From contig JAHIVG010000004.1 of the NCBI GenBank assembly GCA_018816705.1, forward strand, positions 1 to 63,756: DNA of 63,756 nucleotides, written 5' to 3'. The stretch is from Nanobdellota archaeon (GTDB lineage Archaea; Nanobdellota; Nanobdellia; Woesearchaeales; JAHIVG01). Under the pieces are notes generated by a model. That model did no database searches. It saw nothing but the letters and a program-made list of their open reading frames with translations, and was not told where the DNA came from. Both the position numbers and the translations under genes were made by a program. This document shows positions 18,940 to 63,756 of the stretch, piece after piece (positions within the stretch are counted from its first letter, which is position 1; the number at the start of each line of letters is the position of its first letter).

Positions 18940-19073
18940 CTCAGTTTTACAATATTTATAAGTAATTATGACATAATTTGTATATAAATGTTTCTATTTT
19001 CCACCTAGGTTACTAATTTAGTATACCAATATACTAATTATTACTATAATCAAGGGTGATTATCGCCACAATC

Positions 19074-19081
19074 TTTTTATA
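19074..19081 (+). promoter_or_regulatory. TATA box for hisS (leaderless)
   Basis: TTTTTATA lies 31 nt upstream of ATG 19105, with no SD between. Confidence 0.4.
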
Positions 19082-19104
19082 CAAAACCCCACAACAACCG
19101 AAGC

Positions 19105-20355: not shown

Positions 20356-20358
20356 TCC

Positions 20359-20828: not shown

Positions 20829-20867
20829 AGCAACTATATAACTCGCTATAGTATATAAAGATTGCGG

Positions 20868-22434: not shown

Positions 22435-22456
22435 GCAAGAAGTTTTCCCTGTGTTG

Positions 22457-22464
22457 TTTATAAA
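22457..22464. promoter_or_regulatory. Palindromic TATA element (TTTATAAA) in the 73-nt divergent map/maf spacer
   Basis: Lies 23-30 nt upstream of the map ATG (22434, minus strand). A second TTTAAGTA at 22478-22485 lies 23-30 nt upstream of the maf ATG 22508. Confidence 0.4.
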
Positions 22465-22507
22465 TTTTGTGAGAAGATTTAAGTACGAAAACAGTTCTAG
22501 CCATGGC

Positions 22508-23095
22508 ATGGTACAGATTATCCTCGCCTCTGCCTCAGAGCGGAGGAAAGAGCTGATGTTGAGGCTTATAGGCAAGAATTTCACCGTCCTGCCGAGCGGC
22601 TTCGATGAAGATAACACTCTTGATATGGAACCGGAAGAATTAGCCATGCATAATTCGAGGGGAAAGGCAAGAGATGTCGCAAAGCAGCACAGGTCAGCGG
22701 TCGTGATAGGCGTGGACACGCTTGTCTTCAGCCATGGCAAGGTCTTAGGGAAACCCGTCACTCCAGGAAAAGCCAAAGAGATGCTTAAAGGGATCAGCGG
22801 GAAGAACATCACTGTGATCAGCGGGATCACCGTGATCCATGACGGCAAAGAGCAGACTGATTATGAGCTCACAAAGGTGAAGATGAAGGATATGACAGAA
22901 GATGAGATAAACGCTTATGTGGCCTCGGATGAACCCTTGGATAAGGCAGGCGCTTTCGGAGCCATGGATAAGGGCGCATTGATGATAGAGAGTGTGCAAG
23001 GCTCGTTCTACAATGTTGTAGGGTTGCCGATATACAAGCTCAACCTGATGCTGAAAGAGATAGGAATCGAGCTTATGGAAATCCCTAATAGATGA
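22508..23095 (+). CDS. maf: Maf-family nucleoside triphosphate pyrophosphatase (195 aa)
   Basis: IILASASERRKELM.., ..D.LV...G...GKP.., ..KAGAFG.. are the Maf/YhdE pattern. Start refined to ATG 22508. Confidence 0.85.
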   Translation: MVQIILASASERRKELMLRLIGKNFTVLPSGFDEDNTLDMEPEELAMHNSRGKARDVAKQHRSAVVIGVDTLVFSHGKVLGKPVTPGKAKEMLKGISGKNITVISGITVIHDGKEQTDYELTKVKMKDMTEDEINAYVASDEPLDKAGAFGAMDKGALMIESVQGSFYNVVGLPIYKLNLMLKEIGIELMEIPNR

Positions 23096-38902: not shown

Positions 38903-40383
38903 AAAAAAAACGCTATATACGCATTTTTCCGACCTGGGTAATATATTTTATTATCATATTAGTTGTCCTTAGTATCCCAGTCATATTACTTCGTAATGGA
39001 AATTCTGAGATAAATGAGGACAGGAACGTCAGGCAAGCAGCTGTCGCCGGCACTTGGTATCCAGGCTCAAAGAGCGACCTGGAAAAATCAGTCGATGATT
39101 ATTTTGCGAAGGCTGCAGAGCCAGACCTGGAGAAGGACATAAAGGGCCTCATCGTGCCCCACGCAGGCTATGTCTATTCCGGCCAGGTGGCTGCGCAGGG
39201 CTTCAACCAGCTGACCAAGCAGTATGACAAGGTCTTCATCCTAGCCAGTAACCACGCCCAGGGTGTTGATGTTAAAGGCATTTCAGTGCCTGATTTCACG
39301 CATTACAGCACGCCGCTCGGCGAGGTCAAGGTGTCCGAGATTGCGCAAGAGCTGTTGGATCACGACCTCTTCGTCAGCGTCCCTGCTGCTCACACCACTC
39401 ATGTCATCGAGATTGAGCTGCCTTTCCTCCAGCAGAAGCTTGGAGATTTCGAGATCATACCTTTAGTAACTGGACCCCTGAACTTTGAGCAGATCCAGCA
39501 GGCTGCAGACATACTGTCGCAATATATCGACAGCCGCAGCCTGATTGTTGTCAGCTCTGACCTGTCGCATTATCACCCGTACGACGAGGCTCTCCTGCTC
39601 GACACGACATGCATAAAGGAGGTAGAGGCGCAGGACTTCGAGGGCGCTGCGAAGTGCGAGGCCTGCGGCCTCTACGCGATGTTCATCCTTCTGGAGCTAT
39701 CGAAACGGAACGGCTGGCAGGCCAAGATTGTCGACTACAAGAACAGCGGCGACACCTCGGGAGACAAGTCTAGTGTTGTTGGTTATAGCTCGATAATATT
39801 CTACGAACAGCTGCTGACCGAGGAGGAGAAGACGACCTTGTTGAAGCTTGCCCGGCAGCAGCTGGAGTCCATCTACGGCGAGGTCGAGATGGAGGAGTAC
39901 GAGCTCACCCCGAACCTGAGGAAAGTGCAGGGGTGTTTCTCGACGCTGAACAAGGACAGTAACCTCAGGGGCTGCATCGGTCACATCCTGCCGCAGGAGG
40001 AGCTGTATAAGTGCGTCATGGACAACATACAGAACGCTGCCTTGCACGATGCGCGCTTCCAGCCCGTGACAGAACAGGAGCTTGAGGACATTGAGATAGA
40101 GATAAGCGTGCTCACCGTGCCAGAGAAGCTCCCTTTTGAATCAGGAGAGGACCTGTTGCAGAAGCTCAGGCCAGGCATCGACGGTGTGGTGTTGAAGAAG
40201 GGTTTCCGCCAGTCTACATATCTTCCGCAGGTCTGGGACATGTTCCCTGATGCTGAGACCTTCCTCTCCAGCCTCTGCATGAAAGGCGGTATGCCGGTTG
40301 ATTGCTGGCAGGACACGAGCACAGAGGTCCTTACTTATCAGGCGATAGTTTTCGATGAATCAGAAATACCTCAGCAGGATTAG
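38899..40383 (+). CDS. amrB: Fused AmmeMemoRadiSam system protein B (Memo-like) + protein A (AMMECR1-like) with N-terminal signal anchor (494 aa)
   Basis: ATGA overlap with amrS. N-terminal MKKKRYIRIF + TM helix. Memo motifs AVAGTWYPGS and IVPHAGYVYSG. AMMECR1 motif ..LRGCIGHI.. plus the C-terminal ..STYLPQVW.. . Confidence 0.85.
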   Translation: MKKKRYIRIFPTWVIYFIIILVVLSIPVILLRNGNSEINEDRNVRQAAVAGTWYPGSKSDLEKSVDDYFAKAAEPDLEKDIKGLIVPHAGYVYSGQVAAQGFNQLTKQYDKVFILASNHAQGVDVKGISVPDFTHYSTPLGEVKVSEIAQELLDHDLFVSVPAAHTTHVIEIELPFLQQKLGDFEIIPLVTGPLNFEQIQQAADILSQYIDSRSLIVVSSDLSHYHPYDEALLLDTTCIKEVEAQDFEGAAKCEACGLYAMFILLELSKRNGWQAKIVDYKNSGDTSGDKSSVVGYSSIIFYEQLLTEEEKTTLLKLARQQLESIYGEVEMEEYELTPNLRKVQGCFSTLNKDSNLRGCIGHILPQEELYKCVMDNIQNAALHDARFQPVTEQELEDIEIEISVLTVPEKLPFESGEDLLQKLRPGIDGVVLKKGFRQSTYLPQVWDMFPDAETFLSSLCMKGGMPVDCWQDTSTEVLTYQAIVFDESEIPQQD

Positions 40384-49580: not shown

Positions 49581-49997
49581 ATGCGCATAGGACAAGCTAG
49601 CATGGAATACATCATCGTCATCGGCTTCGCCCTGCTGATGGCCTTCCCGCTCATAATGATCTTCTTCTCCCAGAGCCAGGATGTGACCGATCAGCTCAGC
49701 ATGAACCAGGTGAGGGAGATAGGCCGCAAGGTGATTAACACGGCCGAGAAGGTGTACTACCTCGGCGAGCCCTCGCAGACCATCCTCAAGGTATACCTCC
49801 CTAGCCACGTCGATAGTTTTATCGTGAACGGTACCACCCAGGAGATCGTGTTCAAGGTGAAGATAGAGAGTTCCTTGAGCGATGTCGTGTTCAGGTCAGA
49901 CGTCCCCATATACAATTCCAGTCTGTTGCCGGTCTCAGGCATCAGATTCATCAAGATAAGGACTGTAGATGGCAGGGTGAACATCACAGATGCGTAG
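49581..49997 (+). CDS. Class III signal peptide (archaeal type IV pilin-like) protein 1 (138 aa)
   Basis: MRIG|QASMEYIIVIGFALLMAFPLIMIFF has a short basic leader, Gln at +1, S-x-E-[YF] and a hydrophobic helix. This matches the 'Class III signal peptide' family motif and Methanococcus EppA-type pilins. Confidence 0.75.
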   Translation: MRIGQASMEYIIVIGFALLMAFPLIMIFFSQSQDVTDQLSMNQVREIGRKVINTAEKVYYLGEPSQTILKVYLPSHVDSFIVNGTTQEIVFKVKIESSLSDVVFRSDVPIYNSSLLPVSGIRFIKIRTVDGRVNITDA

Positions 49998-50394
49998 CCA
50001 GATCTCGATGGAGTTCATGGTCCTAATCGCGGTAGGGATACTCAGCTTCATCGTGGTCATCGTCATTGTCGGGGACCAGGTCAAGGAGATGTATGATGAC
50101 AGGGAGTATATAATGACGAGGAACATCGCCATCGAGCTCCAGAACGAGTTCTACCTGGCTGCCCAGGTGCATCACGGCTATGAGCGCACAATTGAGGTTC
50201 CCGATGACGTGGAAGGGATAACTATGGAAATTGCCCTCAACACCGAGACTGCTATCCTGACCGTCAAGTCAGCGAGATACGAGCACGTCATGAACGTCCC
50301 CCATAACATCAAGGGCACCTTGCTGGCAGGAGTCGACAACGTGATAGCCAACAACCACAGCCTGGTGCTGATCAAGCCGGAGCTGATAGGATGA
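49990..50394 (+). CDS. Class III signal peptide (pilin-like) protein 2 (134 aa)
   Basis: MRS|QISMEFMVLIAVGILSFIVVIVIV. 8-nt overlap with the previous gene. Confidence 0.75.
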   Translation: MRSQISMEFMVLIAVGILSFIVVIVIVGDQVKEMYDDREYIMTRNIAIELQNEFYLAAQVHHGYERTIEVPDDVEGITMEIALNTETAILTVKSARYEHVMNVPHNIKGTLLAGVDNVIANNHSLVLIKPELIG

Positions 50395-51509
50395 GCCGCC
50401 GCTCCCAGGTGTGGTACATGGACTTCATTATGTCCTTCTTCATATTCTCTGTCGTGATAGTGATATTCATGCATTTCATCGTCAACAAGAGCGAGGAGAG
50501 CAAGGTGGTCCAGGACCAGCTTCTCACTGACGCGAGGATAATCTCCAATTCACTCATGCTGCCTGGCTACCCGTTGAACTGGGACCACACGAACGTGGAC
50601 AGGATAGGCATAACGGACAAGAACAGCAAGTTCAACAGGACCAAGCTCCTGGAGTTCCAGAAGCTTACCTATTCAGAGATGAGGAAGAGGTTCGACGTCC
50701 CGCACGACTTCATGATCTTTTTCGAGGGCGACAACCGCAAGTCTGTTCCCGTCTTCGGCGTGTGCAGCGTCGGCCACCCGGACATGGACCTCTCTTCGAA
50801 GAGGAAGATTGCGTATTACACCAGGAACATAGAGGATGCCGTCCTCGACCCGGACAGCCATGAAGTGTATGACGACCTGGATGAGATGGGCATCACTGCT
50901 GTTGACACATTCTGCGAAGAAGGCCATACGAAATGCAACGGGCTGACCGCAGAACTTGAGAATGATCTCTTTGACTACGACCTCCTCATCGTGGAGAACG
51001 GAGACCTCGACCTGGTGCCATCATTCCTTTCCTGGGCCGAGAAGGGCCTGCCGACTTTGCTCATCGGCGACTTCACCACTGCCGGGATGATGGGCATGAA
51101 TGTGGACCATACAGAGACTGTTGGCTCGACCGATGCCATCATGGCAAAGGAACTTCCCTTCCTTGACCTAACAGCAGACTCGATGATATCCATGAACCAT
51201 GATTATGTAGTGCTGACGAATAATGATCCGAATGTCATCGTCGAAACTTATGCCACTTCGGACGAGTGGGGCACCGGTATAATGGCCTGGACCTATTCCG
51301 ACGGCACCATCTACCACTTCAGCTCCGCAGACATACTGTCGCCCCCGGACTTCTACGACCAGCTGAAGCTCGGCATCTACGACCTTGCCAATCATAATTG
51401 CTCCAAGCTGGACCTGTCAGCTGTGGATTATAGCAACGTGGTCAAGCTCTCGAGGTTCCTGGTCAAGAAGAACAGGGTCATAAACATGGTGATACTTACA
51501 TGGGACTAG
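50391..51509 (+). CDS. Pilin-like N-terminus protein 3 (372 aa)
   Basis: MSRRS|QVWYMDFIMSFFIFSVVIVIFMHFIV. ATGA overlap with the previous gene. The globular part is unrecognised. Confidence 0.6.
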   Translation: MSRRSQVWYMDFIMSFFIFSVVIVIFMHFIVNKSEESKVVQDQLLTDARIISNSLMLPGYPLNWDHTNVDRIGITDKNSKFNRTKLLEFQKLTYSEMRKRFDVPHDFMIFFEGDNRKSVPVFGVCSVGHPDMDLSSKRKIAYYTRNIEDAVLDPDSHEVYDDLDEMGITAVDTFCEEGHTKCNGLTAELENDLFDYDLLIVENGDLDLVPSFLSWAEKGLPTLLIGDFTTAGMMGMNVDHTETVGSTDAIMAKELPFLDLTADSMISMNHDYVVLTNNDPNVIVETYATSDEWGTGIMAWTYSDGTIYHFSSADILSPPDFYDQLKLGIYDLANHNCSKLDLSAVDYSNVVKLSRFLVKKNRVINMVILTWD

Positions 51510-54500
51510 ACCCTAGAAAAGGATTCGTGTTCACCCTCGACTCGATGCTGGGAGCCACGCTCCTCCTCTTAGGGATTGCGGTGTTCTCGCTCTTCTTCAT
51601 CACCGAGGTCGACACGACACAGCCCACTCTCCTCTCGCAGGACTCCATAGATTTCCTCTCTGAGATGGGCATGGTGGAGATCGATGCTCCTGTCCTGCAC
51701 GACCTGAGGGAAATCGGTCCTTCACTGGACACAGACCTTTCAGTATTGGAGCAGATAGCCCTCTTCTGGGTCAAAGAGGAGCATGACGCAGCCTACGATC
51801 TCTCAAGATATGTCTTCGAAAAGATGATCCCTCCGCAGTACGGCTACAGCATCGTCGTAGGCGGAGAGGAGATATATTCAAGGGCCAAGCCTGGCAACAA
51901 GACCCTGGTCAGCTCCAAGAAGACTGTTACCGGCATCGAGAAGGACAAGGAGGTGGAGAGGTTCTTGACCTATGCCCACCTGACAGGCATGGACACATAC
52001 TTATACGACAGGTATGTCTACTTCGGAGGCTTCACCGGCCAGGGCAACATCACTGTCGCCATCGACCTGCCGGAATACATCAACATCACCAACGTCACCA
52101 TAGAGGGTGCTTTCAGCCACAACTTCTCGCTGTTCATCAACAGCACATGGGCAGGCTACTACAACTTCACAGATGATGACCCCATGAAGGCCGAGACCTT
52201 CTGGGTGAACTACTCATATTTCAACGATTTCGAACGCGGCAACATCACCATGATGCACATCAGGTTCAACACCTCAGACCTTGGTTATATCGGCGGTGGC
52301 TACATCAAGGTAAGGATGAACATGAGCACCAACCAGAGCAACATGACGCCGCAGTTCACCGAGTATCACGGCGAAAGCTACCTGCAGCGCCACTATTTCC
52401 CGCAGGTGGACGGCTTCGTCAACCAGTACGGCTCTTACTACTTCCCACCGAGGCTGCTGAACATCTCAGGCATGCTCCACTACCGCTCTGACATAGGCCA
52501 GGTTGACAATGTCTCCCTCAAGCTCATCATCGGCAACGAGAGCATCTTCAACGACACATCATTCTATGGTGATGAGATCGTCAAGCTCGTACCTGATAAC
52601 TTCTCCGGCCTCAACCTGGCTCTTCTTGCGGGCAAGAACGTGCCCATGCGCTTCGGCTGGATTGGCGCAAACTTCTCCTTCGGCGGCGTGAAGGCAGTGC
52701 TGATCACTGACTTGTCAACCAGTATGGACTATGATATTCCCCAGACCGGAGGCGGTGAGGTAAGGGGATGTGATGATCCTCTGCTGTATGATGACTCGAC
52801 CGAGAGGCTGTCGCTGGCGAAATGCCTGGACAAAGATTTCGTTAACAACTTGCTAGATGAGTCTTTACACTCTAACGTAGGACTTGTATCGTTCTCGACC
52901 AGGTCTGACAGGTTCACCGAGCTCCGGGATGATGCTGCCATGCTTATCGGAGACATTGACGAATACGAGACAATAAGCGCCACCTGCATCGCCTGCGGCA
53001 TATTCAAGGCCATCGAGCTGCTCAAGGAATATGACATCCTTCTCCCAAAACACAGCGACTACAAGTACAACCTGGACTTTATCCTCCCTGGCAATGACCC
53101 TCCAGCAGGATGGAAAGACCTGGCATTCAACGACGATGACTGGCTCACGGGCACTGCTCCATTCGGTTTTGGATTTGATGGGATAAATACTAACATCGAC
53201 CGAACAATGATGAATCCCACTTATGAATACCGACCGATATCCTATTGCTATTATCCTTCAGGGACTGATTGTGCCGGTTTCCTGACATGTTCCCCAGCCC
53301 TTGTGAACACTGATGATGAGATCAACCAATGTTTACTGAACGACACCACTCAAGCTCCTGCAGTCTTCCAGGTCGGTGACACTTCCAGCACTCCCACGAG
53401 CAAGGTCTCTTATCCTGAGGAGACCAAAGTACAGCATGTCAACGACCTGTACAGGTTCCCGGCGTGCGACAGGGTGACAGAATACTGTTTCAGATTCGAC
53501 ACGACGCCAAATGTCTGGCAGCAAAAGCCCCCACCTTCCGCGGATTTCATCATTTTCAGGCCCTTCTCTGACAGGTATGAAAAGGTTTATTCGTTCCAAA
53601 GGAGCCTTAGTAAGGAATTCGACCTCAACACCGGCAGGAAGGTATGCTATAACCCTAACCAAAAGATAAAGATTCTTGATGGCGACGTCATTGGCCTGTT
53701 CACCAACTTCGGCGAGATCTACGACACTGCTCCGAGCGGAGGCACACAGATACGGAAGCAAGGCCTACACGACGAATTACTTTACTCGGATCCCACAAGG
53801 GGCGGGCGGCTGATGGTAGGGATGAAATGCGAGCAGGACAGGCAGCAGCGCAACATAACCGCAGTATTCGGCACAGACGGATTCTCAGACCGTGATGCCA
53901 AGAACTTGCTCACAGAGATAGACATACTTCCGGAAGAGGATGTCACTTACAAGATAACTTATGCAATATATTCCGCTTCTGGAACATTTAGAGGTTGGCG
54001 CGATGTGTGTGATGGATCGCTTGAAAAGGGTGTCGTGACACACCTGGAATGCCTGGCGCCGGCTCTTCCTGATAATGATAGATATTTTTCTTCGATGCTC
54101 AATAAAGCTTACATGCAGCTTGAGATCCTCTTCGACTGCGAGAGCTGCACATCAGGCAAGGTCCACATCGACTATGTGGGCATAACTGCAATCACCTCTT
54201 CTGGCGACCTGTATTTCAGGAAGAAGTTTGATGTCTCAGAGCAATATGATGAGGTCATACTTGAAGTGTTAGACGACGACAGCGCCACGGTATATATTGA
54301 TGGTGTGCAGATTCCCACAAATGACTACCTCGGCAGGGACTGGTTTCACTTCAGGAATCTGACTGGACCACGGATTCCCAGCCCAGGCCGGCACATCCTT
54401 GCCGTAAAGCTTGAGAACCAAGACATCGATTCGATGTCCTTCGATTCCCAGCTCAAGACCCCTGCACCGAGGAACTCTTCGATTCCAAGGGCCATGGTCG

Positions 54501-55591
54501 TCATGAGCGATGGAGTAGCCAATATGTGCTATCCCACTGGTTTGTGCGGCTCTATATTGAATCCTCCAATCATTGACCCTGCACAGCAGGCGAGAGATTT
54601 CGCCTGTGAAGCATTCATCAAGCACGGAATCAGGATATACAGCATCGGATTCGCTGTTAGTGGCAGCGGCCTCACGACGCTTGAGAATATCGCTGCATGC
54701 GACGACGAAAATCATTTCTACCAATCCCAGGACCCTGAGGAGCTCCAGGAGATCTATGACACCCTAGCAGAGGACATCGCCAAGCTAGGCTACGAGGCAC
54801 AGGCCGCATCCATCTTAGGTGATGTGGAGAGCATCCTCTACAACGACTCCTACCTGGAGTTCAACATCTCTACGGGAAGCGATCCCATATCCACAGGACT
54901 GATCCCCCTCACCGTCCAGACCCCTCCATTCGGCAACAACATCTCGGAACTGAACATCTCGTTGAGGGACGGCATGATCATCCAGGATGCCAGGATAACA
55001 TCATACTCCGGCGACAAGTGGACCAGGCTCGTCTGGATCAACAACTCTCTCGAGAACCTTACAGTCTTCAACCTGACTGACTTCGGAAGGGACTATGTCC
55101 TGCTCGGAGACCCGTTCATCATCGAGTTCCCCCCGGATGCCCTCAGGGGTGGAGGCAACATGATACACTCAGACACAGGCATCACGCCGACTGGACTCAC
55201 TAACGGTTCGCCCAGCAACCGCCTCATATTCACAACCCTAATCTCGCCCAGGTCAAGGAGCCTCGGCCTCGGAGATTATGAGGAAGGGTGCGGATGGAAC
55301 ATCGAATTCGAAGACGACCTGAAGAAGCTCATGCTCACCCCTCAACATTACGCAGGGCCGCTTGTATGCGCATACAACTCCACAAACCACACCCTGCAAG
55401 ACAACGCCTATGACGGGAACAATTCCATGCATATCGCGCTGCACGACCTCCTGAGCAGGCTGGATTTCGACCAGGACGGACGCCTTGACGTGGAGATCGG
55501 CGAGCCCAACCTTCTGATCAAGACCGCGACCACTGACAGGATACCCAACCTCTGGGGGCCGACGCTGGTGGAGGTGAAGATCTGGCAATGA
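51500..55591 (+). CDS. Giant pilin-anchored vWA-domain protein, paralog A (1363 aa)
   Basis: N-terminus MGLDPRKG|FVFTLDSMLGATLLLLGIAVFSLFF. vWA MIDAS AVLITDLSTSM (D404), ..VGLVSFS.., ..TCIACGI.. then, about 480 aa later, ..MVVMSDGVAN (D1004), ..IYSIGFA.. and ..LQEIYDTLAEDI. About 18 N-x-S/T sequons in residues 180-400. C-terminal DFDQDGRLD. Confidence 0.8.
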   Translation: MGLDPRKGFVFTLDSMLGATLLLLGIAVFSLFFITEVDTTQPTLLSQDSIDFLSEMGMVEIDAPVLHDLREIGPSLDTDLSVLEQIALFWVKEEHDAAYDLSRYVFEKMIPPQYGYSIVVGGEEIYSRAKPGNKTLVSSKKTVTGIEKDKEVERFLTYAHLTGMDTYLYDRYVYFGGFTGQGNITVAIDLPEYINITNVTIEGAFSHNFSLFINSTWAGYYNFTDDDPMKAETFWVNYSYFNDFERGNITMMHIRFNTSDLGYIGGGYIKVRMNMSTNQSNMTPQFTEYHGESYLQRHYFPQVDGFVNQYGSYYFPPRLLNISGMLHYRSDIGQVDNVSLKLIIGNESIFNDTSFYGDEIVKLVPDNFSGLNLALLAGKNVPMRFGWIGANFSFGGVKAVLITDLSTSMDYDIPQTGGGEVRGCDDPLLYDDSTERLSLAKCLDKDFVNNLLDESLHSNVGLVSFSTRSDRFTELRDDAAMLIGDIDEYETISATCIACGIFKAIELLKEYDILLPKHSDYKYNLDFILPGNDPPAGWKDLAFNDDDWLTGTAPFGFGFDGINTNIDRTMMNPTYEYRPISYCYYPSGTDCAGFLTCSPALVNTDDEINQCLLNDTTQAPAVFQVGDTSSTPTSKVSYPEETKVQHVNDLYRFPACDRVTEYCFRFDTTPNVWQQKPPPSADFIIFRPFSDRYEKVYSFQRSLSKEFDLNTGRKVCYNPNQKIKILDGDVIGLFTNFGEIYDTAPSGGTQIRKQGLHDELLYSDPTRGGRLMVGMKCEQDRQQRNITAVFGTDGFSDRDAKNLLTEIDILPEEDVTYKITYAIYSASGTFRGWRDVCDGSLEKGVVTHLECLAPALPDNDRYFSSMLNKAYMQLEILFDCESCTSGKVHIDYVGITAITSSGDLYFRKKFDVSEQYDEVILEVLDDDSATVYIDGVQIPTNDYLGRDWFHFRNLTGPRIPSPGRHILAVKLENQDIDSMSFDSQLKTPAPRNSSIPRAMVVMSDGVANMCYPTGLCGSILNPPIIDPAQQARDFACEAFIKHGIRIYSIGFAVSGSGLTTLENIAACDDENHFYQSQDPEELQEIYDTLAEDIAKLGYEAQAASILGDVESILYNDSYLEFNISTGSDPISTGLIPLTVQTPPFGNNISELNISLRDGMIIQDARITSYSGDKWTRLVWINNSLENLTVFNLTDFGRDYVLLGDPFIIEFPPDALRGGGNMIHSDTGITPTGLTNGSPSNRLIFTTLISPRSRSLGLGDYEEGCGWNIEFEDDLKKLMLTPQHYAGPLVCAYNSTNHTLQDNAYDGNNSMHIALHDLLSRLDFDQDGRLDVEIGEPNLLIKTATTDRIPNLWGPTLVEVKIWQ

Positions 55592-58500
55592 GAAGGAGGA
55601 AGGGGATATTGTTCACCATTGATGCAGTCCTGGGAGCGACGCTGCTGCTCTTAGGCATATTCATGTACTCGCTCTTCTTCGTGACAGAGGAGGAGACCAC
55701 CCAGTCCGCCTACTTCTCCCGCGACGCCGTCGACTTCCTGGCGCAGGTGAGGATGGACGAGCTGGACTTCCGTTTCCTGCACGACCTTAACAGGATCTCC
55801 TTGTCTATCGATCCTGACATCAGCGTCCTCGAGCAGATGGCTCTCTTATGGGTCAAGGGGGAGTACGAGGCATCGCAGCTGCTGTGCAACTATACTTTCC
55901 TTGAGCTCATACCCGAGCAGTACGGCTTCGAGATAAGGGTCGGCAATGACGTCGTGTGCAACCGCTACAAACCGGGTAGCGAGACCGTTATCACCTCCAA
56001 GAGGAGCATCTCCGGCATCGAGAAGTCCCAGCAGACAGAGAGGTTCCTGTCGTATGCGCATCTTACCGGCATGGACAACTTCCTGATGGACTTCTACACC
56101 TATTTCCAGGGGTTCACCGGCCAGGGCAACATCACCGTGCTCATGGAGGTCCCTGAGTTCATCTCCATAAGGAACGTGATCATCGAGGGCTCTTTCAGCG
56201 ACAATTTCGAGTTCCATATAAACGGGAACGGGTCAGGCAACTTCACGACCAACAGGACGAATCCTCTCGGTGCTGAGACCTTCATCATCGACCCCGTGCA
56301 TTTCAGCAATTTCGGTGGGGAGAACAGGACCTCGTTCTCGATAAGGTTCAACTCGAGCGAAGGGCAGCTCGGATACATCGGCGGCGGTTATATCCGGGTC
56401 ACGGCCAACATCAGCGCCAACAACACCCACCTGAAGGAGGGCATGAGGCAGTTCACGCATATAGCGAATGACACGTTGATAACAAGATATTACCTTCCGC
56501 AGGTCGAGGGGGTGATCAATCTCTATGGGTCTTATTACTTCCCCCCTGATATCTCGAACTTATCTGCTAGCCTGCACTACAAGTCAGACATCGGCCAGTT
56601 AGACGATGTTTATCTCCAACTGGTCTTGGCGAACCAGACGATCTTCTTCGACGAGAACTTCACAGGAGAGGAGACAATCGACCTCGACCCCGAGCGTTTC
56701 TCAGCGCTCAATCTCAGCAAGCTTGCTGGCAAGAACGTCCCCATGCGCTTCGGCTGGACAGACATCGCACCTTATGGGGGAGGAGGTGTGGATGCCATAC
56801 TCATCACTGATATCTCAGGAAGCATGGCATGGAACATAACTCCTGGAGATGGTTGGTTACGTACGGATGGAGAGACATGGGGGAACGACTGCGATAATAC
56901 CAAGATGTACACGAGCAACAGGACTATGCGCCTTGCCTTGGCAAAATGCCTTGACAAGAGATTCGTCGATATAATCCTCGAAGACCTCAGCCCGAGCAGG
57001 ATGGGCTTGGTATTTTTCTACCATACACTCATTCCCTTATACACAAATGTTGTCCCTTTAAAGGATTATACAAGCAGGTCGTACTTGCATAATAAAATCG
57101 ATGCAATTGACAATCCTGTAGGGAACACTTGTGTCTCATGCGGCATCTATAAGGCGATGGAACTGCTTTTCAAGCCTGGAACGCCAATCCCTGCTGAAAG
57201 CCAATGGAAATACACTCTTGAATATCCCGATGCTGCACCTCCAGGAAACTGGGATGCGCTGGAATATGATGATGGATCATGGCCGCAAGGGCAGATGCCT
57301 ATCGGCTTCGGTCCTGATTCGAACACTGTCATCGACCCGCTGTACATGGGCGGTGATCTGATGAGGGATTCTGTAGATGTGATTCCGAGTTACAGCCTGT
57401 TCAGCGGGGAATCCTGCTGGGGTGATGGCTCCATGCTTCAGAATCTCGACGGTAACTTCCTTTGCCTCCAGAACACCAGCCCATCGCTGAATTGGGTTCA
57501 GATGGTCGGTGATGTATCCCAGCAGGCTAACCGGCTCGGCATATACGATATTGAGACGCTAGTGCAGGACTCGAATGATATGTACAAGATCCCCTATTAT
57601 TGCGGTCAGTTGGATGACTTCAGGTTCTTCTTCAATGTCGTGCCTGGTGTCTGGTCAGACAGGGTCTTCGTGGAATTCCTTGTGCTGCGGCCGTTCTACG
57701 ATCCAGGCCTGAAGTATGAGGTGAAGCACTCTTTCAGGAAGCGCCTGACGACCTATGAGGCCGTTGGCTCTCCTGAGGTTGGAAATAATTCGGAATATCT
57801 CGGCCCGCCGAGCGCTCGGACTTTCGTGCCTAACGGATTCCCACTGACCGACATCCAGGAAGGCGATGTCCTCGGCCTGTACACCTCATTTCCCCCACTC
57901 AAGGTCAGGAAACCAGGCACCGGAAGGCTCCTCTATGAATCCGGGTATGAGGACATCATTGATGACAGCCAGAGCCAGGAAATGAGACAGTTGACGATAG
58001 GCGCGAAATGCAACATGTCGATAAGACCCACCATATCTACGACCTTCAAGTCCGAACCATTTACTGATATAGAGGAGTATGATTATATCGAGGCCGAGAT
58101 TAATTTTATGCCAGAGGAGGACCTATGGTATGATATCTTCTTCTTCAATACCTCAGACCTTGAATGGGTATGGGCATGTTCAGGCCATGTCGAAGCTACA
58201 GGTGAGATTTTCGAGGAGGACTGTAGGCTGAACGTCAATCCACCCTCAGATTTCTTCAACGCCGAGTCGAGAATCAGCATAAAGCTCGATTTCATCTTTG
58301 ATTCATATTGCAGGAGCGGCCCCTGTACAGCCCATCAGGTAAAATTGGATGAGATTGATTTTGTAGGTGTAGAATCGAATGGGACGATATATCTGAGGAA
58401 GACCTTCAACGTCAACCAGTCGCAGTTCGCGGATCCCACTTTACGATTGAGATCAGATGACCGCGCTGATATGTACATCAATGGGCAACGGATCGACGGC

Positions 58501-59796
58501 GGCTGGACGCCTTATCCAGGACTGGAATGGGATGAAGAGATAAACTTATTTGAAGACCTGTTCCACCCGGGCGAGAACATGATTTCTGCGATTGTCTATA
58601 ACCAGGATGCATCATCATTGGATTTCGACGCCGAGATCCATTTCGGGGATTACCCTCAGGACAACAAGAGGAGGGCTATGCTGGTGATGAGCGATGGAGA
58701 GGCAAACACATGTTTGCCGGGTGGTTTTGGGACCTGCATTAACGGATTTTCTGCCGGGAATGAGACCATAAACCTGTCATGCAGGGCTCATGATCAATAT
58801 GGGATAGATGTCTACACCATAGGTTTCGCCCTGGATCCTTCACGTGATCCTGAAGCGATTGACATCCTCAATCAATCTGCCTGCTGCGATAATTGCTCAC
58901 ATTTCTATTCGAGCCAGTCCGCTGAAGAGCTGGTTCAGATCTATCAGGAAATCGCCCAAGAGTTACGGGGCCTTGAATATATCTCGCAGTCAGCCCTCAT
59001 CGAGGGCAACATCTTCAGCATCCTCTACAACGACTCCTATCTCGAGGTAAACTCCACCGTGCCCGAAGCCTTCACGATCAAGGGCCAGATACCTATCACC
59101 GTCCAATCACCGAGGTTCGGGAACAATGACACCGAGTTCACCGCGTCCTTCGGCCCCAACATCCATATCCTAGACGCGCGGCTCACGTCCTACTCCGCAG
59201 ACAGGTGGACAGACCTGGCATGGGTCTACAACCAGTACGGGAACCACACCATATTCGACCTCTCGAATTTCAGCATGAGATACCAGCTGATGGGCGACCC
59301 ATACATAATAGAGATAAACCCCGCCTATCTCGCTCCCGGCAACAACACCTTCCGCATAGAGACAGCCTACAGCCCCACCAACAGGAGCGGGGGCTCTCCG
59401 GACAACTCGCTCATATACACCACCCTGGTCTCACCTAATGCCATGACAGAGGGCCTCGGAGGATACTTCGAGGGGTGCAACTGGACATTGCAGTTCGAGG
59501 ACCTGACGAACTCGAGCATCCTCGTCCCGTCAACCTATGACGGGAAGCATAGATGCGCCTATTCTGCCCTCAATCACTCTGAAGGCAACTGTGTCCTCTA
59601 CAATGATTGTTCCTACGACCGTAACAATTCCATAGACAACGCCATGCACACCCTGCTTGAGCGGCTCGACTTCGACAAGGACGGCCTCATAGATATGGAC
59701 CTCGACCAGGCCAGCATCCAGGTCGAGACGGCCACCGTGCCCGACATCCCCTCGCTCCTCGGGCCGGAGATGCTTGAGGTGAGACTATGGCAATGA
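55588..59796 (+). CDS. Giant pilin-anchored vWA-domain protein, paralog B (1402 aa)
   Basis: N-terminus MRRRKG|ILFTIDAVLGATLLLLGIFMYSLFF. AILITDISGSM (D408) ... AMLVMSDGEAN (D1036), ..VYTIGFA.. and ..LVQIYQEIAQEL. Collinear with paralog A throughout. ATGA overlap with A. Confidence 0.8.
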   Translation: MRRRKGILFTIDAVLGATLLLLGIFMYSLFFVTEEETTQSAYFSRDAVDFLAQVRMDELDFRFLHDLNRISLSIDPDISVLEQMALLWVKGEYEASQLLCNYTFLELIPEQYGFEIRVGNDVVCNRYKPGSETVITSKRSISGIEKSQQTERFLSYAHLTGMDNFLMDFYTYFQGFTGQGNITVLMEVPEFISIRNVIIEGSFSDNFEFHINGNGSGNFTTNRTNPLGAETFIIDPVHFSNFGGENRTSFSIRFNSSEGQLGYIGGGYIRVTANISANNTHLKEGMRQFTHIANDTLITRYYLPQVEGVINLYGSYYFPPDISNLSASLHYKSDIGQLDDVYLQLVLANQTIFFDENFTGEETIDLDPERFSALNLSKLAGKNVPMRFGWTDIAPYGGGGVDAILITDISGSMAWNITPGDGWLRTDGETWGNDCDNTKMYTSNRTMRLALAKCLDKRFVDIILEDLSPSRMGLVFFYHTLIPLYTNVVPLKDYTSRSYLHNKIDAIDNPVGNTCVSCGIYKAMELLFKPGTPIPAESQWKYTLEYPDAAPPGNWDALEYDDGSWPQGQMPIGFGPDSNTVIDPLYMGGDLMRDSVDVIPSYSLFSGESCWGDGSMLQNLDGNFLCLQNTSPSLNWVQMVGDVSQQANRLGIYDIETLVQDSNDMYKIPYYCGQLDDFRFFFNVVPGVWSDRVFVEFLVLRPFYDPGLKYEVKHSFRKRLTTYEAVGSPEVGNNSEYLGPPSARTFVPNGFPLTDIQEGDVLGLYTSFPPLKVRKPGTGRLLYESGYEDIIDDSQSQEMRQLTIGAKCNMSIRPTISTTFKSEPFTDIEEYDYIEAEINFMPEEDLWYDIFFFNTSDLEWVWACSGHVEATGEIFEEDCRLNVNPPSDFFNAESRISIKLDFIFDSYCRSGPCTAHQVKLDEIDFVGVESNGTIYLRKTFNVNQSQFADPTLRLRSDDRADMYINGQRIDGGWTPYPGLEWDEEINLFEDLFHPGENMISAIVYNQDASSLDFDAEIHFGDYPQDNKRRAMLVMSDGEANTCLPGGFGTCINGFSAGNETINLSCRAHDQYGIDVYTIGFALDPSRDPEAIDILNQSACCDNCSHFYSSQSAEELVQIYQEIAQELRGLEYISQSALIEGNIFSILYNDSYLEVNSTVPEAFTIKGQIPITVQSPRFGNNDTEFTASFGPNIHILDARLTSYSADRWTDLAWVYNQYGNHTIFDLSNFSMRYQLMGDPYIIEINPAYLAPGNNTFRIETAYSPTNRSGGSPDNSLIYTTLVSPNAMTEGLGGYFEGCNWTLQFEDLTNSSILVPSTYDGKHRCAYSALNHSEGNCVLYNDCSYDRNNSIDNAMHTLLERLDFDKDGLIDMDLDQASIQVETATVPDIPSLLGPEMLEVRLWQ

Positions 59797-62507
59797 GACG
59801 CGGCGTGTTCTTCATAATAGACGCCTTCCTGGCTGTCATGCTCCTGTTCGTGGCTGTCATAGTCATCTCCACCTATTTCGTGACAGAGGAGGAGACCACC
59901 CAATCGGAGTTCCTCAGCAGGGATTCGGTGGACCTGCTGGCGGAGGTCAAGATAAAGGACCTCGACCAGGACTCAATCAATCAGATAACCGCCCTCGGTT
60001 CGGCCTACAAGATGAACTACACCGTTCTCGAGCAGATAGCCCTCTTCTGGATCAAGAATGAGACAGACGCTGCGAGGGAGCTGTCAAGGATCATCTTCGG
60101 CAACTACATCCCCGAAAGGTACGGCTACAGCGTCATGGTCGGGGGCCAGATGGTCCATTCGAGGAACATCTCCAAGCAGACCGCTGTCAGGAGCGCCTCG
60201 CATATGGTCTCGGGCATCGAGCAGGACAAGCCGGTTGAGGGCTACACGGCAAGGGTGTACCTGACCACCTCGCCGTACAGGAAGGTCTCTTCTTACATCT
60301 ATTTCGGCGGCTTCGTCGGAGAGGGCAACCTCAGCGCAGAGATAATGCTCCCGGATAACTACACCAACATGATCGAGGTCTACTTCGAGGGCGTGCTGAG
60401 CACCGACGCGCTGCTTTCCGTCAACGACCAGTACGCCCAGACCCTGCACAGGAAGGCCCTGTCAGACATGGATGCTGACAACTACACGCTGTCCACTGCA
60501 GTGCACTCGCTGTTCCAGCCCGGGAGGAACACCATCAACATAACCTTCAACGTCACCCAGGCGAACCAGTCGCTCGGCTTCATCGGCGGCGGCTACCTCA
60601 GGGTTGACACCAACACCACAGCCCAGTTCGATCCCAGGAGGTATGACATCGACAATTCCACGCAGAGGCAGTATTTCACGGGAATCGACGGCCTGATCAA
60701 CATCTATGATTCGATATATGTCGGAGGTGACCTGAAGCAGATGAGCCTCTACCTCCATTATGATTCCAATTTCAGCAGCTACAACTCGAGCAACTTCTCC
60801 ATCTACCTGAATGTCGGCAACGTGACCGTCTTCATGGACAACAACGTTACGGGTGAGGAGTACGTCAACATCTCAGATTCCCAGCTCAGCAGCAAGCTCA
60901 ACTACTCTGCGTTGAGCGGCCAGACCATACCCATTAGGATGGGGTCCAGCGGCATCAACTACTCTGAATACGACGCTGGCAACAATGATGTCATCCTGGT
61001 CACAGACCTTTCCGGCAGCATGCAGTGGAGGTTGACTTCAAACGTGAACGGTAACATTGTCAATGATTGTTCCGACCCCCAGATCTATGATTCCGACACG
61101 AGAAGGATAAGCTTAGCCAAGTGCCTTGATAAGGACTTCGTCAGCCTCATCCTTAACCTTAGCGGAAACCGCGTCGGGCTCGTGGGATTCAACATCGACG
61201 CTTACACATGGGATAGCCTGACGACTGACGTGAGTTCCCTCATAAGCTCCATCAACAACTACCCGGACAGCCCCTCCGATGGCACCTGCATCTGCTGTGC
61301 GATCAATAGGGCATACAACATACTCAATTCTGAGAGCAACGCTTCAAGGAACAAGTTCATAATCGTCATGAGCGATGGCATCCCCGGCAGGAGGTGCATC
61401 GGCTCTGGGGCATGCTCAACCAGCTTCAAGGGAACAAGCACCTCCGGAAGCTTCTGCTGCAGCGGCAACTCTGGAGATTGCAACAATCCTTCGTGCAACG
61501 GACCGAGCAAGAACGCGAACTGGAGCTCATGGAGAGCCCACGACGATCTGAACGCCACGGTCCATGCCATAGGCTTCGGCCCCGTATCGAGCTGCTACCT
61601 CGCAAATTTCACATTGAACAACGTGGCTGAGTCTGGGGACGGTGAGTATTATGCGAGCAGCAATGCCACCGAGCTGCAGGACATCTACATGGGCCTGGCA
61701 AATAACATATTGACGTATACATACAAGGCCCAGGCGATAATCCTGACAGGCAACCTCATCAAGTCCAGGCTCTTCCCGGACTCGCATTTCGAGCTGAACT
61801 TCACGCCCTATGTGAACATCGAATCAGCCGGTGATATACCCCTCTCGGTCGAGCTCCCGCCTTTCAACAACAATTTCACCAACGGCACCTTCCGTATCCC
61901 GCCCAACATCACCCTCGCTGAGGTGCTCGTCACCTCCTACTCAGGCGACAGGTGGACCAATGACGTGATCGTGTTCGGTGATACATCGACAGTAGTGCCC
62001 TACAACCTCTCTTCTTATGGCTCTAACTACCGTCTGCTAGGTGATCCGTTCATCGTCCAGATCCCGCCCAACTATTTCGAGTCTGGCACCAACGTGACTG
62101 TGAGGATTGACACCGGGCTCTCGCCGGACAATGTCTCTGGCGGCTCACCTGATAACAGGCTGATCTTTACCGTTCTGGCGAGGACCAATGCCGAGTCAGA
62201 GGGAGTCGGTGCATTGGCAGATGGCTGCACATGGGATATCCGCTTTGAGGATGGCTCCGCCCTCAATGCTACTATACCAGCCGACTATTCCGGTAACAAT
62301 CAGTGCAGGTTCTTCAACGCCAGCTATGACCGCGATGATGCCATAGAGAGCGCTGCCTTCATCCTGTTCAGCCAGCTGGACCTGGACGGCGACGGCCTCC
62401 TCGACATAAGGTTCGACAAGCAGTCCCTCAACACGAACGTGCTGGTAACTTCAGGTGTGCCGTATCTCTGGGGTCCCACACTTGTGGAGGTGAGGGTATG
62501 GCAGTAG
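59787..62507 (+). CDS. Pilin-anchored vWA-domain protein, paralog C (906 aa; uninterrupted vWA)
   Basis: N-terminus MAMRRG|VFFIIDAFLAVMLLFVAVIVISTYF. VILVTDLSGSM (D407) ... FIIVMSDGIPG (D530), ..VHAIGFG.. and ..LQDIYMGLANNI. A Cys-rich loop follows the SDG. N- and C-terminal modules are shared with A and B. Confidence 0.8.
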   Translation: MAMRRGVFFIIDAFLAVMLLFVAVIVISTYFVTEEETTQSEFLSRDSVDLLAEVKIKDLDQDSINQITALGSAYKMNYTVLEQIALFWIKNETDAARELSRIIFGNYIPERYGYSVMVGGQMVHSRNISKQTAVRSASHMVSGIEQDKPVEGYTARVYLTTSPYRKVSSYIYFGGFVGEGNLSAEIMLPDNYTNMIEVYFEGVLSTDALLSVNDQYAQTLHRKALSDMDADNYTLSTAVHSLFQPGRNTINITFNVTQANQSLGFIGGGYLRVDTNTTAQFDPRRYDIDNSTQRQYFTGIDGLINIYDSIYVGGDLKQMSLYLHYDSNFSSYNSSNFSIYLNVGNVTVFMDNNVTGEEYVNISDSQLSSKLNYSALSGQTIPIRMGSSGINYSEYDAGNNDVILVTDLSGSMQWRLTSNVNGNIVNDCSDPQIYDSDTRRISLAKCLDKDFVSLILNLSGNRVGLVGFNIDAYTWDSLTTDVSSLISSINNYPDSPSDGTCICCAINRAYNILNSESNASRNKFIIVMSDGIPGRRCIGSGACSTSFKGTSTSGSFCCSGNSGDCNNPSCNGPSKNANWSSWRAHDDLNATVHAIGFGPVSSCYLANFTLNNVAESGDGEYYASSNATELQDIYMGLANNILTYTYKAQAIILTGNLIKSRLFPDSHFELNFTPYVNIESAGDIPLSVELPPFNNNFTNGTFRIPPNITLAEVLVTSYSGDRWTNDVIVFGDTSTVVPYNLSSYGSNYRLLGDPFIVQIPPNYFESGTNVTVRIDTGLSPDNVSGGSPDNRLIFTVLARTNAESEGVGALADGCTWDIRFEDGSALNATIPADYSGNNQCRFFNASYDRDDAIESAAFILFSQLDLDGDGLLDIRFDKQSLNTNVLVTSGVPYLWGPTLVEVRVWQ

Positions 62508-63454
62508 GCAGGCGGGGTGTGATCTTCACGTTCATATCCATAACTGTGCTGTTCTTCACGATAACCTTCATCTACAACACTTCGCAGTACAGGCTGAGGG
62601 ACAACATCTTCCTTGCAGAGTCCAGGATAATCGCCCTGGACCGCTTCATCTCTGATACAGAATCAGATCTCGAGCGTGCGCTTTACATCGCTGCCTTCAG
62701 GACGCTTCTTGCCATGAACCCGCAGGATGCCGCTGACGATTACATCACAGACATCGACGATAAGTTCCACGAGATGATGATATACGGCAATCTCGACGGG
62801 CAGCCGAGGGCTCTCATAAACGACTCGAACATACTGTTGTGGACCGAGAAGATGGAGGCGCAGGGCTCGAAACTGAGCATCCTCTTCAGCCTGACACCGC
62901 TCAACATCGATGTGCATATGGTCTCACCCTGGGATGTCGAGGTAGAGCTGGACTCCACGCTTGAGGTCGAGGACATAGGCGGGGCTGCCAAGTGGGTGAG
63001 GAACATCACGACCAGGACCAAGGTCAACATCATAAATTTCCCCGACCCTGTGTACGGTCACGGCGGCGCCCAGCCGAACATCATCAAGGAGTCCGTGTAT
63101 ACTATCGAGGAGATCCGGACGAATGACGATAAGCTCAAGGAGCATTGGGAATCCCAAAGATACTTGCCCTGCCCCGGCGCTCCGGACTACATCCAGCGCC
63201 TTGGCGGCCAGCTCGGGGGGAAATCCGAGTACGGCATCGAGAGCCTCGCTTTTCCGAGCAATTACCTTCCGGGCCCAGACATCAAGAACAAGAGCATGGT
63301 CGACCATATATACTGGAGCTCTGCCAACCCAATCCACTGCCCTGTGGACGTCATACCCAGCCTCAGGATGGACAACACCGAGATAACAGTAGGTGTGGTG
63401 GGGCGATGGGACTTCTACGACGTCAACGTCGACGACGCCAGGTGCAGCACTTAA
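62498..63454 (+). CDS. Pilin-like N-terminus protein (318 aa), last gene of the operon
   Basis: MAVGRRG|VIFTFISITVLFFTITFIY. 10-nt overlap with paralog C. The globular part is unrecognised. Confidence 0.6.
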   Translation: MAVGRRGVIFTFISITVLFFTITFIYNTSQYRLRDNIFLAESRIIALDRFISDTESDLERALYIAAFRTLLAMNPQDAADDYITDIDDKFHEMMIYGNLDGQPRALINDSNILLWTEKMEAQGSKLSILFSLTPLNIDVHMVSPWDVEVELDSTLEVEDIGGAAKWVRNITTRTKVNIINFPDPVYGHGGAQPNIIKESVYTIEEIRTNDDKLKEHWESQRYLPCPGAPDYIQRLGGQLGGKSEYGIESLAFPSNYLPGPDIKNKSMVDHIYWSSANPIHCPVDVIPSLRMDNTEITVGVVGRWDFYDVNVDDARCST

Positions 63455-63621
63455 GCTTGGTCCTTCATCAATGAGTACAACACTTTACGTGCACCCGTTA
63501 CTTCTTTATCAGGCACTGACTATATGAGGGTTGGTGTGGGCATTGGGTTGGTAGCATATGGGGACATGTAGTTTTGCGAGGCATGCGGTGGTTCTGGTGG
63601 ACATCAATATGGGACATGTCA

Positions 63622-63693
63622 TAGAAATCCTAAAATCCGACTACCCAGCCCTGAAGGACTGGGCTTGCGTCGGATTTTCGAGACGGATTTCTA
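63622..63693. repeat. Compound inverted repeat / extended hairpin downstream of the operon
   Basis: TAGAAATCC-T-AAAATCCGAC ... GTCGGATTTT-CGAGAC-GGATTTCTA has perfect 9- and 10-nt arms. An inner CCCAG/CTGGG stem is also present. Confidence 0.5.
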
Positions 63694-63756
63694 GGACACA
63701 AAAAAAGCAGAAAACCATAATACTAACAAACGCATTCATCCTCACCCTGAAGGGCA

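Follow-up and report, generated by a model that had tools for sequence, protein, structure and literature searches.

A 63,756-nucleotide stretch of contig JAHIVG010000004.1 (assembly GCA_018816705.1) from a Nanobdellota archaeon of the Woesearchaeales, here called the window, carries three tandem, translationally coupled paralogs with a von Willebrand factor A (vWA) domain. All features of this locus described below lie on the plus strand. Paralog A (51500-55591, 1,363 aa) has a pilin-like N-terminus, an N-terminal domain, a vWA domain split by a nested insert and a C-terminal domain. Paralog B (55588-59796, 1,402 aa) shares this three-level architecture, and paralog C (59787-62507, 906 aa), in which the vWA domain is uninterrupted, has the base form of the family. 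A and B are 40% identical across 100% of their length (BLASTP), and A and C are 37% identical in a three-way alignment of A, B and C. The nested architecture of A and B, in which a vWA domain hosts a galactose-binding-domain-like jelly roll that in turn hosts an orphan module, is in our judgement very probable.

Each of the three proteins starts with a short basic leader, followed by a hydrophobic helix. Residues 1-34 of A (51500-51601) read MGLDPRKG followed by FVFTLDSMLGATLLLLGIAVFSLFFI and, on inspection of the sequence, form a putative class III (prepilin-type) signal. By eye, PRKG and the adjoining FVFTLDSMLGATLLLLGIAVFSLFF make up a short charged leader, a [KR]-G motif and a hydrophobic helix, and the motif is conserved in the family (consensus KKGxxFSxDAL), with R6, G8, F11 and D14 identical in all three paralogs. 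N-x-S/T sequons exceed expectation about three-fold in each protein (34-37 found versus 10-14 expected; in A, 34 versus about 10). Because of this excess and of their conserved Cys residues, which we take together as a sign of surface location, A, B and C are presumably surface proteins. By position, 19 of the 34 sequons of A fall within its first 391 residues and 4 inside the 487-aa insert.

A vWA domain that is split yet complete

The metal ion-dependent adhesion site (MIDAS) of a vWA domain draws on both halves of the fold. In A, D404 (nt 52709, within TDLSTSM) and D1004 (nt 54509, within MVVMSDG) are 600 residues apart, and in B, D408 (nt 56809) and D1036 (nt 58693) are separated by 628, whereas D407 and D530 of C are 123 residues apart. 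The original prediction had read such spacings, given as 600, 628 and about 120, as a vWA domain interrupted by a jelly roll that is itself split. All its residue and nucleotide coordinates for these motifs proved correct, and both profile searches and structure prediction bore out the split of the vWA domain.

The uninterrupted domain of C (about residues 399-650, nt 60981-61736) was matched by Pfam VWA_2 over residues 402-531 (1.7e-9; 38.7 bits, cutoff 27) and by VWA (1.3e-7). Its residues 457-535 cover vWA profile positions 34-117 in one unbroken stretch, with 17 residues between alpha3 and beta4. In A, by contrast, the profile is covered in two collinear halves: residues 445-511 correspond to VWA_2 positions 25-92, with a sub-threshold score of 18.9 bits (cutoff 27), and residues 991-1087 to VWA positions 100-173, with 30.5 bits against a gathering cutoff of 23.8. 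The VWA score of B, 22.7, is just under the latter cutoff. The insert of A, about 480 residues, thus lies between vWA profile positions ~95 and 100, and every vWA element is present. The N-terminal half (residues 396-510, nt 52685-53029) contains beta1 with the MIDAS motif D404-x-S406-x-S408, alpha1, beta2, beta3, alpha2, T495 and alpha3; the C-terminal half (residues 991-1100, nt 54470-54799) contains beta4 (AMVVMSD) with the MIDAS D1004, alpha4, beta5, alpha5, beta6 and alpha6. The equivalent MIDAS sets are D408/S410/S412, the aligned Thr (a column invariant in A, B and C) and D1036 in B, and D407/S409/S411, T500 and D530 in C. MIDAS residues are invariant or nearly so across 51-84 homologs, and the D and G of the SDG motif are invariant in 84 sequences.

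Residues 390-1102 of A (713 residues) were modelled with AlphaFold2 (AF2) from an 84-sequence family alignment, with a mean predicted local distance difference test (pLDDT) of 77.9 and a predicted template modelling score (pTM) of 0.62. In model numbering (A residue minus 389), the elements before the insert are beta1 9-15, alpha1 47-65, beta2 70-76, beta3 82-87, alpha2 90-98 and alpha3 108-119, and those after it are beta4 608-614, alpha4 638-653, beta5 655-662, alpha5 666-677, beta6 684-687 and alpha6 690-707. This order, as assigned by DSSP, is that of the canonical six-stranded vWA fold, almost all of it with pLDDT above 90. Block values are 89-98 in the N-terminal half, except for the first block (71), and mostly 87-97 in the C-terminal half, with 67-71 in the loop between beta4 and alpha4. 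Since the Pfam halves are collinear, the MIDAS residues are all present and the AF2 topology is canonical, these data support a vWA domain in A and B that is split yet complete, with a full MIDAS.

The beta4-alpha4 loop, which adjoins the MIDAS, is Cys-rich in C (6-8 Cys as read from the sequence; 61374-61570). It is about 20 residues shorter in A (54509-54650) and apparently also shorter in B; the distance between the MIDAS Asp and the beta5 'IGF' is about 45 residues in A, against 65 in C.

A split jelly roll inside the vWA domain

In A, the insert begins with a jelly-roll N-piece (residues 511-587, nt 53030-53260), composed of a W..Y strand, PPAGWKDLAFNDDDWLTGTAPFGFG from residue 534 (nt 53099), an NTNID strand and a hairpin. 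It ends with a C-piece (residues 888-990, nt 54161-54469), composed of KVHIDYVGITAI, GDLYFRKKFDV (GDLYFRKKF begins at residue 902, nt 54203), ILEVLDDDSATVYIDGVQI, GRHILAVKLENQD and SFDSQL. The strings predicted to open and close the insert were thus found in A at the positions given for them, and B has their equivalents. The boundaries of these pieces in A come from the AF2 secondary structure and confidence, and alignment carried the domain boundaries over from A to B: vWA N-terminal half 400-529 (56785-57174), jelly-roll N-piece 530-606 (57175-57405), jelly-roll C-piece 918-1022 (58339-58653) and vWA C-terminal half 1023-1133 (58654-58986).

Inserts of 370-650 aa are present at the identical vWA site in 22 of 98 family hits, A and B included. 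All 22 share an opening W.Y...PP..W....[FY].D..W..G....G[FY] and a closing YYFRK.F......L.V.SDD.A.VYLNG....W......G.N.LAV.L.N....FD.EL. Each insert was then reduced to its first 66 and last 106 residues, joined end to end ('de-inserted'), and the resulting jelly-roll profile was searched against all Protein Data Bank (PDB) sequences, with matches at E values from 4e-7 to 5e-3. These comprised the glycoside hydrolase family 78 (GH78) rhamnosidases 3w5m (4.3e-7) and 6i60 (6.5e-5), the two-domain lectins 6t0q and 6kbj (1.6e-5), the sialate esterase jelly roll 7kmm and many sugar-binding domains of glycoside hydrolase family 2 (GH2; down to 5e-3). The N-piece of A aligns with N-terminal strands in jelly rolls of known structure, and the C-piece with 3w5m, 6i60, 7kmm and GH2 entries. 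Several alignments span the artificial junction collinearly: 6t0q (query 19-123), 3gm8 (33-154), 5n6u (30-151) and 3bga (7-153). Pfam Glyco_hydro_2_N (PF02837) was matched by 4 of the 22 joined sequences, at best with 4.8e-6.

An undivided version of the same insert exists in nature. P0054, a 1,074-aa protein from Altiarchaeia, carries at the same vWA site a 169-aa insert that is an unsplit jelly roll (4.7e-19); the two profile pieces match it in their proper order, only 8 residues apart (N-piece, insert residues 32-53, 7.9 bits; C-piece, profile positions 74-167, E 1.8e-16). Moreover, the N-piece is kept whichever middle domain comes after it. In the AF2 model of A, its pLDDT is 90-97 up to residue 569, going down to 72-77 by residue 587, and that of the C-piece is mostly 83-93, with two blocks at 74-76; such confident modelling of both pieces would be unusual for orphaned strands. 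Because the same flanking motifs recur in 22 members and the joined flanks match solved jelly rolls, we do not attribute the split to chance. Together, sequence and model support the insert being a galactose-binding-domain-like jelly roll that is split, as predicted, and strongly suggest that its two halves reassemble in three dimensions.

Two other explanations of this architecture deserve consideration. The N-terminal W..DD.W..G.PFGFG segment might belong with the orphan middle, only the C-terminal YFRK segment being a truncated or circularly rearranged jelly roll, so that the halves do not reassemble. The weak score of the N-piece alone (7.9 bits against P0054) and the fact that most PDB matches cover only profile positions 70-155 speak for this possibility; the collinear inclusion of both pieces in the 6t0q, 3gm8, 5n6u and 3bga alignments, their separation by 8 residues in P0054, the conservation of the N-piece independently of the type of middle domain and the pLDDT of ~90 for both pieces in the context model make it very unlikely. 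Even more improbable, to the point of being negligible, is that the split is an artefact of misassembly, of a fused or frameshifted gene, or of an intein or mobile-element insertion. Nothing was found to speak for it. The open reading frames (ORFs) of A and B are uninterrupted, the split is common to about 24 family members, and the full-length homologs P0002 and P0003 show the same architecture on independent contigs from other assemblies, so an assembly artefact was rejected. An intein or mobile element was rejected as well: Pfam gave no intein, Hint or transposase match, and the insert, conserved and 20-34% identical between paralogs, is therefore ancient.

An orphan innermost module

The innermost insert of A (residues 588-887, nt 53261-54160) contains Cys and apparently consists of two beta-rich subdomains (about 650-740 and 770-887); its counterpart in B, with boundaries aligned from A, spans residues 607-917 (nt 57406-58338). 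This middle had been described as 340-356 aa of unrecognised sequence. Its orphan character stands, but its length does not, as the AF2 secondary structure and confidence put the nested part at ~300 aa.

Residues 588-887 of A have no Pfam match. A profile of the module, built from three sequences and searched with hmmsearch (HMMER) over 1.84 billion representative proteins, matched only B and the two Nanoarchaeota proteins P0002 and P0003. Word-indexed homolog searches with the middle alone and with a chimera alignment returned nothing, most likely through the limit of the 5-mer index rather than through absence of homologs. In the context of the whole insert, AF2 gave beta-rich blocks at A ~650-740 (pLDDT 56-76) and 770-887 (65-89), preceded and separated by low-confidence stretches. 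Foldseek with the model of the lone middle retrieved nothing but generic proteins with tandem beta-sandwiches, none above TM 0.23 (BDI_1231, arrestins, a tandem of carbohydrate-binding module family 22 (CBM22), neuropilin b1b2 and PNGase F), which lends weak support to two beta-sandwiches. On these models, the lineage-specific innermost module probably consists of two beta-sandwiches.

Interchangeable guests in a DPANN family

About 70 of the 98 homologs have the base form (~900 aa, like C, with an uninterrupted vWA domain) and about 24 have the split jelly roll. Those with a named organism are all from DPANN archaea: Nanoarchaeota/Woesearchaeota, Aenigmarchaeota, Altiarchaeota and Parvarchaeota. 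The guest within the jelly roll differs among members. The orphan domain of A and B, here type 1, is shared with P0002 and P0003. In 17 members its place is taken by an unrelated domain of ~230 aa (type 2; ANLWE..GD..P.DFSSG ... YYLD.GGK ... FDN), doubled in P0011 and P0036. The guest of P0033 is of yet another kind; the three kinds are mutually unrelated, so the family holds at least three different innermost domains. No relation between the type-1 and type-2 middles was detected by hhalign (probability 0.2%), and the type-2 profile found nothing credible in the PDB or Pfam. P0006 has just the last ~95 residues in common with type 1.

The vWA domain itself has received further guests. At the same alpha3/beta4 site P0055 carries a CUB domain (2.8e-5), the insert of P0067 being near-identical to it by eye, and P0082 carries a LamG-like domain, also assigned by eye. 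Six FG-GAP repeats come after the MIDAS loop in P0092 (7.7e-34), and a repeat array of ~330 aa comes after beta4 in P0060, P0066, P0070, P0090 and P0095-P0097.

A was compared region by region with its three full-length relatives (B, P0002 and P0003). Identity drops stepwise with nesting depth, from 44-52% in the outer N- and C-terminal domains to 37-42% in the vWA domain, 26-34% in the jelly roll and 20-27% in the innermost module, which diverges fastest. The family thus offers a natural series of successive insertion, from the plain vWA domain through vWA with an unsplit jelly roll to a jelly roll with unrelated guests, and both host folds appear intact throughout. On its sequence, P0054 is an intermediate that occurs in nature, placed between the plain form and the one with two levels of nesting.

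Genomic context of the three paralogs

Upstream of A, three operon genes (49581-51509) encode proteins of 138 aa (GQASMEYIIV), 134 aa (SQISMEFMVL) and 372 aa with pilin-like N-termini, and stop and start codons overlap all the way into gene A. The 138- and 134-aa genes (49581-50394) also overlap each other; their products show, by eye, a Q-x-S-x-E-type archaeal pilin signal and have no Pfam or NCBIfam match. Downstream of C, a gene for a 318-aa protein with a hydrophobic N-terminus (MAVGRRGVIFTFISITVLFF) occupies 62498-63454 and is the last of the operon genes in the window, which ends 300 nt further on (63454-63756). When A, B and the small neighbour proteins were scanned with Pfam and NCBIfam, vWA was the sole match.

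The gene order of the window is that of two related loci, L001 and L002, where two ~130-aa proteins, a 358-386-aa protein, a long vWA protein, a ~906-aa vWA protein and a ~330-aa protein follow one another. Specifically, genes of 135, 129 and 358-386 aa precede the long vWA gene, and genes of 324 and 336 aa are the syntenic counterparts of the 318-aa gene. In a third locus, L003, a large vWA gene (that of P0054, 8001-11225) lies upstream of pilus genes, in a comparable position with different neighbours. A T2SSE ATPase gene and two T2SSF/TadC genes are found a few genes downstream in L001 and L003; in L001 a 434-aa gene, the T2SSE ATPase gene and the two T2SSF genes (17811-22849) come after the pilin-like genes. 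As T2SSE and T2SSF come next in the syntenic loci, the assembly genes of our operon probably lie just past the window end. L001 also encodes, between its AdoHcyase gene and the pilin genes (4126-8007), a 1,293-aa NosD/beta-helix protein that is not in the window.

In sequence-profile searches, pilus or fimbrial adhesins supplied the nearest vWA domains of solved structure: Mfa5 (6tnj, 3.6e-8), PilB (7b7p, 4e-6), GBS104 (3tw0) and RrgA (2ww8).

Relation to known systems

A close parallel is Streptococcus sanguinis PilB (7b7p), which combines a class III signal and a pilin-type hydrophobic segment, putative in A, B and C, with a vWA domain bearing, as here, a complete MIDAS, is encoded in a type IV pilus locus and aligns with the whole family vWA (profile 379-635, E 4e-6). 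PilB is a vWA module on a type IV pilin that has been shown by experiment to bind metal (Mg/Mn) and to mediate adhesion (PMC8179133); in A and B, adhesion and metal binding are predicted from sequence. PilB differs in being bacterial, about 460 aa long and bimodular, with two short 'arms' beside the MIDAS, whereas A, B and C are archaeal, 900-1,400 aa long and equipped with large extra N- and C-terminal domains, and A and B have a two-level nested insert at what would be the pole opposite the MIDAS.

In layout, the locus resembles clade-1 archaeal type IV pilus systems (the Methanococcus Epd type), which are modelled as having, besides one ATPase and two TadC proteins, no fewer than five class III signal proteins and a pair of large predicted tip adhesins (PMC4858521). 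Several putative class III proteins, two large proteins, one ATPase and two TadC/T2SSF proteins are common to both, and the small pilins here have the QxSxE-type motif. The likeness is one of locus layout, and the large clade-1 proteins carry DUF2341 (PilY-like) rather than vWA; no DUF2341 Pfam match was obtained here.

Sortase-pilus tip adhesins, namely RrgA (2ww8), GBS104 (3tw0) and Mfa5 (6tnj/6to1), share the vWA domain with its MIDAS and are detectable relatives by sequence. RrgA is built of nested domains, like a 'Russian doll'. There the vWA is nested deepest, as a guest, and has small arms close to the MIDAS, whereas that of A and B is the outermost host. A, B and C have no LPxTG sorting signal and come from an archaeon; their relation to RrgA and GBS104 is one of analogy and of a shared vWA domain only, the assembly system being different. 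A general Pfam scan gave no CnaB or isopeptide domain, no search aimed at CnaB having been made. Three-level nesting also occurs in the integrin beta subunit, an adhesion receptor in which a vWA-like beta-I domain sits within the hybrid domain and this within the PSI domain. There the vWA is innermost, the reverse of the order in A and B, the protein is eukaryotic and homology is implied no further than the vWA fold. Known galactose-binding-domain-like jelly rolls (PF02837; 3w5m/6i60; 6t0q/6kbj) show the same W..FDDS.W..G and YFRK.F...L.L..DD...VYLNG motifs and the same strand order. Their motif blocks are about 30-45 residues apart, compared with 300-600 here, where another domain is inserted, and unlike them the jelly roll of A and B is itself a guest inside a vWA domain.

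vWA domains on type IV pilins (PilB, TadG), nested vWA tip adhesins (RrgA) and three-level nesting (integrin beta) are already known. Different here are the DPANN archaeal host, the vWA as outermost host, the jelly roll as both guest and host, and the use of the inner site as a cassette for unrelated domains, of which the guest in A and B is essentially an orphan. Public records label these proteins 'VWA domain-containing protein' or 'hypothetical protein', and a literature search on vWA pilins of DPANN or Woesearchaeota found no description of the A/B/C family. Standard annotation thus misses about 480 residues of A and of B.

Proposed role and alternatives

We consider it reasonably probable that A and B are giant pilin-like surface proteins with nested modules, acting as tip or minor subunits of an archaeal type IV pilus-like filament, in a DPANN archaeon of the Nanoarchaeota/Woesearchaeales type. 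A role in adhesion is a near-even proposition, with a slight lean in its favour. Incorporation into a pilus, processing, classes of ligand and arrangement in three dimensions are what we infer for these proteins. The charged leader and hydrophobic helix would anchor A and B in the membrane or the filament. After the helix come an N-terminal domain of ~360 aa, the vWA domain with its complete MIDAS and a C-terminal domain of ~260 aa; the alpha3-beta4 loop of the vWA has received the jelly roll, and a jelly-roll loop after the third or fourth strand the ~300-aa module. As bacterial pilus tip adhesins do, the MIDAS would use Mg2+ or Mn2+ to bind a protein ligand at an acidic group. The jelly roll, with the fast-evolving module inside it, would project from the opposite pole of the vWA, adding lectin-like or other recognition surfaces that set specificity for the partner or surface. 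The tandem paralogs, together with interchangeable innermost modules, would provide an attachment repertoire. The functional part of the original prediction, in which a carbohydrate-binding module would help to form an adhesin head with several binding surfaces, is thus plausible.

Several observations weigh against this reading. No T2SSE or T2SSF gene is present anywhere in the window, the ATPase and platform genes being found only in related loci. The N-termini of A and B match no Pfam or NCBIfam pilin model, and the class III signal was read by eye. The joined flanks of A on their own match no Pfam family, so that assigning the jelly roll depends on the profile of the family. A Foldseek search with the whole 713-residue model was uninformative: its best matches (infectious bursal disease virus (IBDV) VP2, reelin, PNGase and others, TM ~0.1-0.25) were dropped as multi-sandwich noise. 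The innermost module is poorly modelled, with pLDDT of 30-89 in context and a mean of 47 alone, from a 4-sequence alignment. Finally, the insert would exit at the vWA pole opposite the MIDAS, beside the N- and C-termini of the domain itself. The vWA/I-domain topology is established and allows this pole to be placed: the chain departs into the insert behind alpha3 and returns where beta4 begins, the MIDAS Thr lying ahead of alpha3 and the MIDAS Asp at the far end of beta4. It is therefore unlikely that the added modules sit beside the metal site, and their cooperation with the MIDAS is not implied.

This topology favours a structural role, in which the nested modules would act as strut or shield, or as a surface on which other minor pilins of the operon dock, and binding of an external ligand, if there is any, would be left to the MIDAS. 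At the inferred exit pole, beside the termini, the insert would be near the other domains of the protein. Many galactose-binding-domain-like modules of glycosidases are structural, and those of GH2 and GH78 enzymes, our best profile matches, are often non-binding; the scarcity of sequons in the insert (4 of 34 in A) could also mean partial burial. However, the innermost domain diverges fastest and is swapped among relatives, which is more typical of exposed recognition modules, and the CUB, FG-GAP and LamG-like inserts of other members are typical interaction domains. We therefore regard a structural role as unlikely. Less likely still is that the proteins are not pilus subunits but surface or S-layer-associated vWA proteins anchored in the membrane by their single N-terminal helix, or assembly or regulatory factors for the pilus machinery, of the TadG-like or vWA/MoxR type. 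The lack of a match to pilin family models is compatible with such a role, and a regulatory function has been proposed for vWA proteins near archaeal type IV pilus loci, and one in anchoring the pilus for TadG (PMC4858521). Against it stand the conserved position within a run of genes with pilin-like N-termini, upstream of T2SSE and T2SSF; the extracellular character suggested by many sequons and Cys; the closeness of the solved vWA domains of pilus tip adhesins rather than of MoxR partners; and the absence of a MoxR or GvpN ATPase from the locus.

A life in attachment to other cells is generally assumed for DPANN archaea, but few of the molecules that make and specify this contact are known. 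Large, sequon-rich and pilin-like, with a MIDAS-bearing vWA domain and a conserved pilus operon, members of the A/B/C family are candidates for such molecules. Their sequences suggest that the nested layout makes a customisable attachment protein, and it points to the innermost, orphan and fastest-diverging module as the candidate specificity part. Tentatively, and as a proposal we hold to be possible but doubtful, the vWA proteins of DPANN pilus loci might form a 'plug-in' receptor-binding platform, with the vWA scaffold and the jelly-roll loop as insertion hot spots and the innermost module, the fastest to evolve, setting the host cell or surface to which an episymbiotic archaeon becomes attached. 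If so, the modules taken up repeatedly would be the orphan two-sandwich, type-2 (in one or two copies) and P0033-type domains, and elsewhere in the vWA also CUB, LamG-like, FG-GAP and propeller-like repeats, in functional analogy to the exchangeable tips of phage receptor-binding proteins.

Other features of the window

The remainder of the window is ordinary chromosome, with purL/purQ, hisS and genes for molybdenum cofactor synthesis and S-adenosylhomocysteine hydrolase, among others; no tRNA or Rfam hit was obtained in the window. At its start (2-10256), six consecutive plus-strand ORFs of 806, 402, 367, 663, 649 and 444 aa have neither a Pfam match nor signal-like N-termini. The ORFs at 4898-6889 and 6976-8925 are paralogs (BLASTP 1e-27, 21% identity), and that at 8922-10256 apparently has an N-terminal region in common with them. 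Two gene fusions were also noted: MoaA (radical SAM plus Mob_synth_C) with MoaC at 10549-11796, and Memo with AMMECR1 at 38890-40383.

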